Source: a virus | Lineage: Duplodnaviria; Heunggongvirae; Uroviricota; Caudoviricetes | IMG/VR virus record: IMGVR_UViG_2896601577_000010 | Reading direction: 5' to 3' (one strand) | Length of the DNA: 14,746 bases | Part shown: positions 3,387 to 9,067 of the stretch, piece after piece | Position numbering within the stretch: the stretch's first letter is position 1 | How the letters are laid out: each line of letters starts with the position of its first letter | The notes under the pieces: model-generated | The model's database searches: none | What the model saw: the letters and a program-made list of their open reading frames with translations, nothing else | Told to the model about the DNA's origin: nothing | Made by a program: the position numbers and the translations under genes

Positions 3387-4638
3387 TCAGAATCCCCTGA
3401 ACATCGCTTTCACCGCATCATGCTCTGTTTCACTGATTGCCTTATTACCGTCAGATGCGCCGTCAGGCGGTTGCGCTAAGGCCGTTTTCCCGGTCGACGC
3501 GAACGGATCCTCACGGGCATCACGACGGGACAGTGCCTCCAGACTGTAGTTCTGCTGCTGAAGATACAGTGCATCACCGCCGGCCAGGGGCGGCAGGTTC
3601 TCCCGTTTACGGGCCTCATTGGGCGTGAGAAGCGTATTTTTCACCGCATCCCCAGCGTTTTCATGCGCCGCTCACTGTCCATTCTCAGCAGCGTGGTGAC
3701 ATCAAATTCTGTACTCTCGTTTTCCCCCGTTTCCAGCGCCTCATCCAGTAACAGTTCAATGGACTCAATCAGCGTCTGCAGGCACTGGGAATAATACTGC
3801 TGCTCCAGCGCCTCCACGTTGTCACTGGAAGGCGGTTGTCCCACGCCAATCTTGTAGGCCGGGACACGGAACACCGAACAGACAATTTCAGCGGTCATCT
3901 TCAGTTGTTCCACCGTCTGCGCATCCACCGGTGAAAACGTCGTGGGGTTGTATTTTGCCCCGTTGCTCAGAATGGCCGTTTTCCCCGCCATTTCTGAAAA
4001 AATACGTCGAATTTTCCTGAATATGATGCCCCTGCGTGGCGGCCAGCCCGGCGGCATACACCGGCGGCAACCCTATAAGCGGATGAAAAAAACAGTTAAA
4101 CCGGTCGTGGATCACTTCCCGGGCAGGCACCGTCACCGCCTCAGTGATCCCGCAGTTCCGGTCCGGCGTGATGCGGTAGAACACTTCGCCGTCATCCGCC
4201 ACCAGTGGTTCAACCCGGCTCCAGTCCAGAATGCGCAGTTCTTTGATCTGCCCCGGGAGTTACGGATTTTCAGCACCACCGTATTGCCGTGACGCAGTTT
4301 GGCGTTCAGCCACAGTTCAAAAAACTGGATGCGGTTCTGCTGGGCGTTGGGACGACGACAGAGGCGGGCAATATCCCCCGGCGAGTTTCCCTGCGTATCC
4401 CCTGCGCATCCGTCTGCATAAGACGCAGCCGCATTTTGGCGATATCCTGGGATATCAGCGAAATGCACGAAAACACCGCATGAAAGGAGAGGACGGCTTC
4501 CGGATCGGCTTTCACGCCCTGCTGCCAGGCGCCGGAAAAGGGCTCAGCCACCGCCTGAAACAGGCTGGTCCAGCCCGCCTCTCTTACGTCACGTCCTGAT
4601 TTCTGGTTTTTTCGGGTTCGCTGTAAAAGGTTCCACAT
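3387..4638 (-). pseudogene. HK97-family portal protein, multiply frameshifted
   Basis: Five consecutive ORF fragments in different frames (4306-4638, 4133-4468, 3888-4202, 3641-4057, 3387-3644) together span about 417 codons. They carry portal hallmarks: N-terminal ...AVFSCISLISQDIAKMRLRL..., ...VDAQTVEQLKMTAEIVCSVFRVPAYKIG..., ...LLRMDSERRMKT... and C-terminal ...TPNEARKRENLPPLAGGD. Confidence 0.75.
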
Positions 4639-4805
4639 TCGCCATGCTCCGCATCACGTTTCTTTTTCTGACCTGCCGGACGTCGCACCGTGATGTACTC
4701 CGCCTTTCCCAGGCGAACCAGCACCTCCGCGCACGGCTGTGCCACATCACGGATATCCCCGGCCCGGGCATCATGCGTGCCCTGCAGATATCGGATCTTT
4801 GCCAT
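4584..4805 (-). CDS. Hypothetical small protein (73 aa) between the capsid and portal genes
   Basis: ORF with ATG at 4805 and a weak RBS. Its 3' end overlaps the annotated portal start by 55 nt in another frame. No recognisable family; it could be spurious or a small packaging/head-completion protein. Confidence 0.3.
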   Translation of the reverse strand: MAKIRYLQGTHDARAGDIRDVAQPCAEVLVRLGKAEYITVRRPAGQKKKRDAEHGECGTFYSEPEKTRNQDVT

Positions 4806-4849
4806 AACCTGTTACGGGAGGCGCTCGCCTCCCGTCCTCCTTATCAGAC

Positions 4850-6824: not shown

Positions 6825-6847
6825 TGATGGTTACAGTGTGAACAGGG

Positions 6848-8507
6848 TTATATGAAAAAAACCGCATATTCTTTCTTTTTCGGTTCCGGGTTAAGGGACA
6901 TCAGGGAGACCGCATTGAACAGCGCCATCAGCGGGTCAATTTTTCCCCGTCCACTGGCCTGTTTGGTGATAAGAATGGCGTTACCTTTAGGCTCCACCCG
7001 GGCATTGCCGACACACCAGGCCATCAGGGGCTGGTCACCATGCACCAGCACCCCTTCAGCCAGTTTGCGCTCGGTGGTTTTAATGGCCCCGCCCAGTTTC
7101 CAGCCCTGGCGTATCCCCACCACAATTCCGTCGGGGATCCCGGCTTCCGCCAGTGAATCCAGAATCTGCCCCACCCCTGACGGGTCAATACCGATATGGT
7201 CCAGTAACTCAGCCTCATGAATGCGACGCACATATTCCGCCACTTCCGCCGTGTCATCCCCGACACGCCGGACAATGGTCATATCTCCACAGGCAACAAG
7301 ATCCTGAAACCGGGACGCCTCGCTCTTCCGTCGGACCACCGCGGTTTCATGCGCCCAGGCATGGCCCCAGCCCAGCCATTCGCGGGTCTCCCGGTCACGC
7401 CCAATCACATACATCCCCAGCAGATCATCCAGCCCTCCGCCGTCAATCCCCACCGTCACCACATCAGCACGACGCAGGATATCGTCCAGGTTGATACAAC
7501 GGCCCTGCTCTTCCCAGAAATCAGCCCCGCCCAGCGGTCAGAGCGCAGGGCAAGACCAATTTCCACATTGGCGTGTTTTGACATGAACCCCCGGAATGTC
7601 TCTTCACCGGCTTCCCGGGCTTTACGGTACTCCCGGTACAGAAAGGCCTCATCCACTGAATAGCCGAGATTCGGAATGACCATGGCGAGGTTTTCCATCA
7701 GCAGGTGAGCCCCGCTTTCCACCATTTCAGGAGGGTGTTCAAATATCACCGGCAGAAAGTGCGGATCATTAATTTTGCCGTCGCGCACATCCCGGGCGTA
7801 CTGCAGTTTTTGTCTGAACACCCCGGCGGGCGGTTCATTCGACTGGGTGGTCGTATACACCACAAACCCTTCCGGGCGGGAGGCAAGCCCGCCGATGGCT
7901 TCACGTAACATGTCCTCCGCCTTGTACTGCTTGCCAAACAGCCACAACTCATCAATCAGCGTCCCACGGACTTGATACCGGACACCGTATTCGGATCGGC
8001 TGCCACCACCTTCAGGGTGGTGTCCGTCACCCGGTGGGTGATGGTCCGGATATGTGTCTGCACCTGACAGAGGTCATCCAGATCATCGTCCCGTCGTACC
8101 ATATCCCTGGCAGGATTGAAGGCGTTGGCTGCCACCTCCACAGTCGGGGCCAGAATCGTGTAACCCGCCGCCTGCCGCCAGTTCAGTAACAGCGCCGTCA
8201 TCATGATCCCGGCGGCCAGTGTGGACTTGCTGTTTTTTTTGGGTATCAGAATGAACACTTCCTTGATATGGCGGACACCGGTCTGCGCATCGTAGGAGCC
8301 AAACAGAGCCGCCACCAGGTCAAACACCCACTGTGCACAGGACTCCCCGAACGTCGGGCTACCCGGTGCATCCACAATCCGCAGTTGTTTAAAAATCGCC
8401 AGGGCATGTGCGGCCTGGTCCGGATAAATCGGAGCCGGAATAATCGACAGCCCCTTTTTCAGGCGCTCTGCCCAGTCCGGGCAGGCCGTGCTCCATACAG
8501 GTATCAT
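6848..8507 (-). pseudogene. Terminase large subunit (TerL), split into three frames
   Basis: ATG at 8507 overlaps the TerS stop (ATGA). Fragment 7956-8507 has the ATPase domain with Walker A-like ILIPKKNSKST. Fragment 7456-7947 is the middle region. Fragment 6848-7462 has the nuclease domain (VGIDGGGLDD...ITKQASGRGKIDPLMALFNA). Total about 553 codons, with frame switches near 7950-8000 and 7460-7560. Confidence 0.8.
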
Positions 8508-9067
8508 CCGTTGCCCTCATTATCGTTATTCACCACCAGTCGTGGTGGTGGTGGTACCGCAAAACGGTTAGCCGCTTTTTTCGCGGCATCACCTTTTGCC
8601 GATTTTTTACCGGCATCGCCTTTTTTATGGTGTGTGAACTGCGCCAGTCGCCAGGCCGCATCCAGTGCCAGTTTCGGATCAATGCTGAGGTTTTCCACCA
8701 GGATCTGCCCCATAGCTTTCACCGGATCGGGAAGACCATCCTCCATATATTCAATACCATGAGACATCACCGCGGGCGGTGGCATCTCCGGATTGTTTTC
8801 GTCCGGCTGTGGTATTGCAGCCGCCTCACGGCGACGGGGTTTATCCTCCTGCTCTGATTTTTTCTGCCGGTAAACAGGAACCTCATCCACCTCCACCGTT
8901 TCGCACTGTTTACGGGCTATAAACGCGAGCACCTCCGGATCTTTTGCCAGCTGCGAGCCTTTAACCCTGGCGGTCTTCGCCGAATAACCGGCGGCAATGG
9001 CTGACGCTGTTTTGTTTTTCCCGGACATGAGCGCCAGCGCAAATTTTCGTTTTTGCGTTGTCAGCAC
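8504..9067 (-). CDS. Terminase small subunit (TerS), P27/HK97-type
   Basis: 187-aa ORF MLTTQKRKFALALMSGKNKTASAIAAGYSAKTARVKGSQL... with an N-terminal HTH-like region. It apparently starts with GTG directly after GGAGGAGG and sits immediately upstream of TerL. Confidence 0.75.
   Translation of the reverse strand: MLTTQKRKFALALMSGKNKTASAIAAGYSAKTARVKGSQLAKDPEVLAFIARKQCETVEVDEVPVYRQKKSEQEDKPRRREAAAIPQPDENNPEMPPPAVMSHGIEYMEDGLPDPVKAMGQILVENLSIDPKLALDAAWRLAQFTHHKKGDAGKKSAKGDAAKKAANRFAVPPPPRLVVNNDNEGNG

Follow-up and report, generated by a model that had tools for sequence, protein, structure and literature searches.

The portal gene of HK97 lies between the large terminase subunit (TerL) gene and the protease gene (TerS-TerL-portal-protease-MCP), whereas in the prophage DNA analyzed here (the window, a stretch of 14,746 nucleotides) it lies after the capsid gene. 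A sequence-only reading had offered two explanations, namely, that the lineage has a genuinely different order or that this decayed prophage underwent a block rearrangement. Here, we ask which of the two holds.

Gene content and order of the head module

The minus strand carries every gene of the module: HNH, TerS, TerL, S78 protease plus HK97-fold capsid, a 73-aa open reading frame (ORF), portal, repeat protein, and connector. The features of the window are as follows:

10790-12052, strand not given, IS600 (IS3 family; rve/HTH_21 transposase; IS600 is annotated in matching E. coli records)
9356-9721, minus strand, HNH endonuclease (Pfam HNH, E = 3.7e-8; 97% identical to the annotated HNH endonuclease of relative L001)
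8504-9067, minus strand, TerS, 187 aa, intact (Pfam Terminase_2, E = 1e-8; 100% identical to L001 TerS)
6848-8507, minus strand, TerL (Pfam TerL_ATPase and TerL_nuclease; tblastn matches in three frames)
6796-6823, minus strand, terminator-like hairpin and T-run between the TerL stop and the SD/GTG start of the protease-capsid gene
4850-6784, minus strand, protease-scaffold-capsid fusion (Phage_capsid, E = 2e-8; phrog_617 and phrog_80; tblastn)
4584-4805, minus strand, small 73-aa gene (phrog_829, E = 9e-39)
3387-4638, minus strand, HK97-family portal (Pfam Phage_portal on four fragments, best E = 8e-25; tblastn)
2326-3382 (ORF 2396-3382), minus strand, repeat protein adjoining the portal (the Shigella flexneri orthologue, P0204, has 353 aa)
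2005-2326, minus strand, gp6-like head-tail connector (Pfam Phage_connect_1; 108 aa in relatives)
1-457, strand not given, IS1 end (DDE_Tnp_IS1 gene in L003)

The Pfam and PHROG matches, together with intact homologues, confirmed the proposed order TerS-TerL-protease-capsid-small ORF-portal, with the repeat protein after the portal. HNH endonucleases are typical partners of HK97-type cos terminases, and the HNH gene is the immediate upstream neighbor of the terminase genes. The connector is followed by head-closure and tail genes in the ancestral order of the lineage.

The protein families are those of HK97: terminase small and large subunits (with ATPase and nuclease domains) and their HNH partner, an HK97-family portal (PF04860), an S78 (HK97 gp4-type) prohead protease, an HK97-fold major capsid protein (MCP) whose N-terminal segment is scaffold-like, and gp6/gp10-like connectors. 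Solved homologues of the portal include 9lbn and 8cez (annotated "portal protein") and 6tba (annotated "HK97 family"). The canonical TerL-portal-protease-MCP order is absent from the window and from all its relatives, and the module is HK97-like in its parts and unlike HK97 in its order. It also differs from HK97 in that protease and MCP are fused (in Enterobacterales) and in having two extra conserved genes, one for a small protein before the portal and one for a repeat/CBM-like protein after it.

Protease and capsid are encoded by one gene

Protease and capsid had been read as separate genes; comparison with intact homologues indicated that the ORFs concerned (6437-6784, 5137-6501, and 4850-5140) are instead fragments of one fusion gene. 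In intact relatives, its 645-aa product begins with an S78 prohead protease, which a coiled-coil linker joins to an HK97-fold MCP. The protease identity comes from intact homologues carrying both PF04586 (Peptidase_S78) and PF05065 and from phrog_80 ("head maturation protease"), and residues 1 to 156 match T5-like prohead proteases (tblastn to annotated prohead proteases). A sequence search of the PDB with the fusion matched no solved structure.

The steps by which such a protein may assemble follow from established knowledge of HK97-type assembly. The fusion protein would coassemble on the portal dodecamer, its protease domain would cut away itself and the scaffold segment, and the HNH, TerS, and TerL proteins would cut and package cos DNA.

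The order is shared across the lineage

Gene order was collinear in all 83 close relatives, and the genes were mostly intact there: the fusion gene in 78 of 81 (the relatives in which a contig end does not cut it), TerL in 67 of 73, and the portal in 72 of 76. Collinear full-length matches at 94 to 98% came from 95 phage records. Among 5,426 complete E. coli genomes, 1,256 carry the module, at a median of 4 copies. The same order is annotated in L001, the Stx2a phage EH1846, BP-4795, Lys8385Vzw, and phi330, and it is found in Salmonella and Serratia prophages. Lys8385Vzw was mitomycin induced and plaque purified and has siphovirus morphology (PMC7946995). At greater distances, every one of the 20 informative species-level loci, drawn from Gamma-, Beta-, and Alphaproteobacteria at 37 to 76% identity, kept the order; the IMG/VR scan gave close E. 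coli relatives alone, and these distant loci come from genome contigs. At the Phenylobacterium locus L113, the match was to the protease part alone, with a repeat-protein-like match upstream.

Multiple intact, inducible relatives have the same order, and TerL-protease-capsid-portal is therefore the family norm. This was the outcome that the sequence-only reading had named as making the order unremarkable, and of its two explanations, the genuinely different lineage order is the one that stands. The other would have the protease-capsid or portal block transposed or inverted in this decaying prophage alone. Such an event would be unsurprising a priori in a prophage that is truly defective (IS1 truncation, IS600 insertion, and a 101-bp portal deletion), but we regard it as almost certainly wrong. 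The window is collinear with intact relatives over both junctions, and the proposed check for breakpoints at 6785-6847 and 4806-4849 turned up neither indels nor repeats nor IS scars. The hairpin, the small ORF, and the overlapping starts at the junctions are kept across genera, and an order unique to this prophage is at odds with the close and the distant loci alike; it would need misoriented assemblies in more than 1,000 complete genomes, which is implausible.

The closest described phages are BP-4795 (AJ556162; Marienburgvirus), YYZ-2008, 1717, Lys8385Vzw, and phi330, with 94 to 98% nucleotide identity over the whole module (HNH to connector collinear, 100% coverage). Relatives of BP-4795 comprise Stx1, Stx2c, and Stx2a long-tailed converting phages and many EHEC lambdoid prophages, and BP-4795-like prophages are the commonest in STEC (PMC6986202). 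The group shares HNH, TerS, TerL, the 645-aa fusion, the 73-aa ORF with its 55-nt overlap, a 454-aa portal, the variable repeat protein, and the connector. In the window, the fusion gene is broken solely by 1-nt homopolymer deletions, and the 73-aa ORF overlap and the variable repeat protein are present. What sets the window copy apart from the group is its IS1 truncation, the IS600 insertion, the loss of 101 bp from the portal gene, and about 18 single-base frameshifts.

Farther away, Burkholderia phage vB_SBP39 (PV072743) has the same order, TerS-TerL-protease-MCP-small ORF (58 aa)-portal-connector-head closure, and identity over protease plus MCP is 39%. It differs in that protease and MCP are separate genes and in having neither the repeat protein after the portal nor the hairpin after TerL. 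The nearest TerL relatives outside the lineage are in Pseudomonas phage Alize and Bordetella phage PHB09, whose HNH-TerS-TerL genes are related at the DNA level (63 to 67% identity over part of TerL) but which have the canonical HK97 order TerL-portal-protease-MCP. The difference in order therefore lies at the level of the lineage. The ancestral order would be HNH, TerS, TerL, S78 protease plus scaffold plus HK97-fold capsid, small protein, portal, repeat protein, and connector, with the bracket of protease, scaffold, and capsid fused in Enterobacterales. Relocation of the portal would be old, being common to Alpha-, Beta-, and Gammaproteobacteria, and would have occurred before the protease-capsid fusion; it did not take place in this prophage.

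The order has been visible for many years in deposited and annotated genomes (BP-4795 and later records) and is in that sense already known; our literature search found no paper that explicitly discusses the gene order or the fusion.

Frameshifts and genuine decay

Measured against intact relatives, the window lacks about 18 single bases, almost all of them in C/G homopolymers, and its ORFs are fragmented as a result. TerL (553 aa in intact relatives) is present as three ORFs (7956-8507, 7456-7947, and 6848-7462) because two C-runs, at about 7524 and 7962, are each 1 nt short; L088, a nearly identical copy, has neither deletion and an intact TerL. In the fusion gene, 1-nt deletions at about 6461/6440 and 5161 separate the three ORFs. 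The portal gene has a 101-bp deletion at about 3988 plus several 1-nt C/G-run deletions and is left in five pieces (4306-4638, 4133-4468, 3888-4202, 3641-4057, and 3387-3644), and the connector is split by two 1-nt C-run deletions. TerL, portal, and connector, which had been listed as several ORFs each, thus proved by tblastn and indel listing to be one gene each, split by frameshifts.

We conclude that most of these frameshifts are probably homopolymer miscalls in the assembly, because 15 of them are absent from L088 and because the same type of deletion occurs in housekeeping DNA. Over 9,978 nt, the window differs from L088 by 3 substitutions but 15 homopolymer deletions. The flanking 4.6 kb of core genome contains two like deletions, within yedA and drpB. 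Genuine pseudogenization by homopolymer slippage in a Shigella-type genome would also yield shortened runs: C/G homopolymers are natural indel hotspots, selection would be relaxed in an element that is dead anyway, and some of the shortened runs recur in single other assemblies (5161 in L086 and 6461 in L088). We nevertheless consider slippage quite unlikely as the source; it may account for some of the deletions. Besides the excess of deletions over substitutions and the hits in yedA and drpB, the indels relative to L001 are nearly all 1-nt C/G-run deletions, while the approximately 39 A/T runs of at least 5 nt are essentially unchanged; the exceptions are two 1-nt A/T-run insertions, at about 851 and 9189, which vary among sister copies as well. 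No nonsense substitutions were seen, and the affected sites are shared inconsistently among assemblies, as expected of recurrent errors.

Judged by these sequence comparisons, the real decay of this copy consists of the IS1 truncation, the IS600 insertion, and the 101-bp portal deletion. The IS1 end cuts the prophage within the tail-tube gene and adjoins chromosomal yedA-vsr-dcm; similarity to intact relatives ends at 458, and in L003, the neighbors of IS1 are EamA, Vsr, and DNA_methylase genes. IS600 separates the lysis genes from the HNH/terminase genes, and the insertion is missing from L086. We count the portal deletion as real because the independent assembly L088 has it too. With these three lesions, the copy lacks the virion-producing capability of its inducible relatives (PMC7946995) and is a dead remnant in a Shigella-type chromosome (CP026867.1). 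That record was recognized through the 328-aa ORF, whereas exact protein matching with two of the frameshifted fragments gave no hit. The description of the window as a decayed prophage consequently holds for these lesions but not for most of the frameshifts.

A conserved hairpin between TerL and the capsid gene

The sequence-only reading had pointed to a terminator-like hairpin at the TerL/protease junction, and it is indeed there: GAACCGC-TCCG-GCGGTTT followed by a T-run, at 6823-6806 on the coding strand. The stem is 7 bp long with a TCCG loop, and the T-run extends the element to 6796. With a GC-rich hairpin and a U-tract on the transcribed strand, it is a predicted Rho-independent terminator, and it is the sole minus-strand terminator-like site in 2000-10000.

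A functional transcription boundary between packaging and head operons might exist here, and the hairpin might even mark the seam of an ancient module exchange. The shape on the coding strand is that of a canonical intrinsic terminator, and the hairpin and T-run, directly upstream of the capsid-gene SD, are kept with that SD in relatives from Enterobacter, Salmonella, Serratia, Pantoea, Rouxiella, Proteus, and Halopseudomonas. That TerL relatives sit in canonical-order modules is consistent with mosaic joining at the hairpin. Even so, we consider a boundary or seam of this kind unlikely. No promoter-like site was found downstream of the hairpin on the minus strand, and the hairpin was not found in the alpha- and betaproteobacterial relatives or in vB_SBP39, though their gene order is the same. 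Covariation amounts to a single compensatory pair, too weak to prove RNA structure, and terminator-like sites overall are no commoner than in shuffled sequence (6 found versus 7.8 expected). Lambdoid late transcription is Q antiterminated. The head genes would belong to such a Q-antiterminated late operon, and in lytic growth, transcription would pass through the conserved hairpin behind TerL.

Genes flanking the relocated portal

The 73-aa gene always lies between the capsid and portal genes. Its orthologues occupy the equivalent position in Enterobacterales, and homologues of its product, with the motif RDAxxLxxxGxA and a basic tail, occur in the alpha- and betaproteobacterial relatives and in vB_SBP39. 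The 55-nt overlap between this ORF and the portal start is present (4584-4638) and had been taken as a sign of a long-standing arrangement. The adjacency and coupling do appear to be ancient, but the 55-nt overlap itself is limited to the E. coli clade; in other genera, the small gene overlaps the portal by 4 nt, in the ATGA manner.

The protein encoded after the portal has a long N-terminal helix and 54-aa (2 × 27) helix-loop repeats, and its C-terminal domain is beta-rich and contains a weak CBM_5_12-like motif; from its AlphaFold model (P0204, 9-sequence alignment; mean pLDDT, 45.8), secondary structure alone was used. The gene holds a 162-nt tandem repeat at 2775-3098, and in the window, its final 37 codons are frameshifted. 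In most relatives, the portal stop and the start of this gene are coupled (ATGA), and in others the two genes are fused; an in-frame fusion through a G5/G6 run occurs in about one-third of E. coli relatives. Phage phi330 has the G6 junction, yet its annotated portal ends in another frame.

For the hairpin and for the 73-aa and repeat proteins, we infer function from sequence. One speculative reading, to which we give a low probability, is that the relocated portal is part of a distinct, uncharacterized HK97-type subarchitecture with two extra conserved genes, in which the repeat protein is possibly a portal- or neck-attached carbohydrate-binding fiber that is switched between free and fused forms by homopolymer slippage. 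The two genes in question encode the small capsid-portal protein and the portal-coupled, variable 54-aa helix-loop repeat protein with its CBM5/12-like C terminus.

Implications

Overall, we are highly confident that the window contains an ordinary BP-4795-like (Marienburgvirus/Pankowvirus-type) long-tailed lambdoid head/packaging module in an ancient lineage order, surviving as a dead remnant in which most frameshifts are probably miscalls. Few prophage head modules of E. coli and Shigella are as common as this one, and its discovery value is small. That an order is "noncanonical" by the standard of HK97 or lambda does not show that it was rearranged; it should be judged by the lineage's own relatives. 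Dense frameshifts, where confined to C/G homopolymers, indicate errors of assembly and not the decay of pseudogenes, which affects pseudogene counts in Shigella-type long-read assemblies.

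Organization of the head module

All genes of the window lie on the minus strand, and the features considered here are listed below.

9356-9721, minus strand: HNH endonuclease (Pfam)
8504-9067, minus strand: terminase small subunit, TerS (Pfam)
7956-8507, 7456-7947 and 6848-7462, minus strand: terminase large subunit, TerL, in three ORFs (Pfam ATPase and nuclease domains)
6823-6796, coding (minus) strand: hairpin GAACCGC-TCCG-GCGGTTT plus T-run, following the TerL stop and preceding the next gene's AGGAGG/GTG start
5137-6501, minus strand: Phage_capsid protein (Pfam), with ORFs 6437-6784 and 4850-5140 on either side
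4584-4805, minus strand: 73-aa ORF, overlapping the first portal ORF by 55 nt
Between 4638 and 3387, minus strand: portal, five successive ORFs, four of the five with Phage_portal (Pfam)
3389-3400, coding strand: portal/repeat-protein G-run (~4097 in L001, an intact annotated E. coli prophage; 5212 in locus L116)
2326-3382, minus strand: repeat-protein gene, with a 162-nt tandem repeat at 2775-3098; the 328-aa ORF spans 2396-3382
Minus strand: gp6-like connector, head-completion, gp10-like and tail-tube genes (Pfam)
831, 1135, 2060, 2131, 2431, 3393, 3649, 4254, 4379, 5161, 6440, 6461, 7524, 7962, 9298 and 9341: single-base deletions
11999 and 15542 of L003, a locus with flanking chromosomal genes: single-base deletions in yedA and drpB

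Pfam assignments and ORF coordinates bear out the order given by the sequence-only reading, in which TerL is followed by protease and capsid, a small ORF, and the portal gene. Protease and capsid are not two genes, as had been supposed: in intact relatives they form one gene with a 645-aa product, carrying PF04586 (Peptidase_S78) N-terminally and PF05065 (HK97-type capsid) C-terminally, and residues 1 to 156 of this fusion also match annotated T5-like prohead proteases. The same relatives have a single 553-aa TerL gene, a 454-aa portal, and a 108-aa connector.

Gene order among relatives

Two explanations had been offered for this order, which is unlike that of HK97: a genuinely different arrangement in the lineage or a block rearranged in a decayed prophage. 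The 7.5-kb module has full-length matches in 95 phage records (94 to 98% identity); among 5426 complete E. coli genomes, 1256 carry it, at a median copy number of four per genome. All 83 close relatives (80 IMG/VR loci and three phages) were collinear with the window, and genes not cut by a contig end were mostly intact (fusion, 78 of 81; TerL, 67 of 73; portal, 72 of 76). No indels were found at the TerL/protease (6785-6847) or capsid/73-aa ORF (4806-4849) junction in the alignment to intact relatives, and a repeat search returned nothing at either, the sole real repeat being the tandem within the repeat-protein gene. These comparisons rule out a local rearrangement and show that the order is the norm of the lineage.

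The arrangement can be seen in annotated, inducible phages deposited long ago. The same annotated order is found in L001, Stx2a phage EH1846, BP-4795 (genus Marienburgvirus), phi330, and Lys8385Vzw, the last of which was induced with mitomycin C, plaque purified, and imaged as a siphovirus (PMC7946995). BP-4795-like prophages are reported to be the commonest in STEC (PMC6986202).

More distantly, Salmonella and Serratia prophages (fusion protein identities of 77% and 74%) have the same layout, with an unnamed 300- to 347-aa protein after the portal. Burkholderia phage vB_SBP39 (39% identity) likewise places the portal after the MCP (TerS-TerL-protease-MCP-58-aa ORF-portal-connector), but its protease and MCP are separate genes, unlike the enterobacterial fusion; the order is thus older than the fusion. 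A species-level scan (one genome per species) returned 22 loci, from Enterobacterales, Proteus, Arsenophonus, Halopseudomonas, Lampropedia, Burkholderia, Haematobacter, Mesorhizobium, Bosea, Brevundimonas, and Paenochrobactrum. TerL, protease/MCP, and portal followed one another in 20 of the 20 loci with enough flank, and a repeat-protein-like gene and the connector usually come after the portal. In contrast, the canonical order TerL-portal-protease-MCP is found in the two phages closest in TerL beyond this lineage, Pseudomonas phage Alize and Bordetella phage PHB09; the departure from the HK97 order is therefore a lineage trait. In a Phenylobacterium kunshanense locus (L113, 7772-8489), the match was limited to the protease domain, and a segment resembling the repeat-protein C-terminal domain lies directly upstream in a different arrangement.

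The small ORF and the TerL hairpin

The small ORF belongs to phrog_829, a family of unknown function, and recognizable homologues with an RDAxxLxxxGxA motif and a basic tail occupy the same position in nearly all loci. The 55-nt overlap had been taken as a sign of long-standing arrangement; an overlap is indeed present, but that length is confined to the E. coli clade, and elsewhere the overlap is 4 nt. The family spans three proteobacterial classes (window 4584-4805; relative L005, 3944-4120; distant loci L102 to L111), and some alphaproteobacterial members have an additional C-terminal helical segment.

The terminator-like hairpin noted at the TerL/protease junction is present and, with its T-run and Shine-Dalgarno sequence, is kept in Enterobacter, Salmonella, Serratia, Pantoea, Rouxiella, Proteus, and Halopseudomonas relatives; all three are absent from the alpha- and betaproteobacterial relatives and the Burkholderia phage. 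Covariation was limited to one pair, and terminator-like sites showed no excess over shuffled sequence. The hairpin is thus conserved at the enterobacterial junction and is not a scar.

The portal-adjacent repeat protein

Starting with a long helix, the protein continues into helix-loop repeats and ends in a beta-rich domain with a weak recurrent CBM_5_12 match (21 to 26.5 bits; cut-off, 26.2). Its 54-aa units (2 x 27, pattern IPxPxDGxD...helix) set its length among relatives (245 to 461 aa). The structure model (pLDDT 45.8) was too poor for structure search; we can only speculate that the protein is a portal- or neck-associated fiber. With a G5 coding-strand run, the start of this protein and the stop of the portal overlap (ATGA; 41 loci); with G6, the two are fused in an 807-aa ORF (24 loci, including L001 and phi330); the window, like one relative, has G4. 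Among E. coli prophages, one clade commonly carries the fused form, which PGAP labels "phage portal protein." Short-read contigs often break inside this gene, hence many "partial portal protein" entries.

Genuine lesions and apparent frameshifts

CP026867.1 (GCA_002949895.1) contains the window at 100% identity. The description of the prophage as decayed holds for three lesions. An IS1 end (1-457) truncates it inside the tail-tube gene and adjoins chromosomal yedA-vsr-dcm, and an IS600 insertion (10790-12052) separates the lysis genes from the HNH gene. A 101-bp portal deletion at ~3988 (L001 ~4695-4795), with short CATTT microhomology, is common only to the window and the near-identical copy L088; because L088 was independently assembled, the deletion is real, and it is a genuine inactivating lesion. 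Records of the exact 73-aa protein come from Shigella boydii and E. coli and suggest that the host is of Shigella type.

The description probably fails for most frameshifts. Besides the portal deletion, ~18 indels separate the window from L001, nearly all 1-nt deletions in C/G runs, whereas ~39 A/T runs of at least 5 show essentially no change. Over 9978 nt, L088 differs from the window by only 3 substitutions but lacks 15 of these C/G-run deletions; the few shortened runs found elsewhere are inconsistently shared. There are no nonsense substitutions, and 4.6 kb of flanking core genome contains two indels only, both of the C/G-run type, frameshifting yedA and drpB. It is likely that the fragmentation is mostly due to assembly error and not to biology, and the CP026867.1 assembly probably under-calls C/G runs systematically. 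If so, the pseudogene count of this genome would be inflated.
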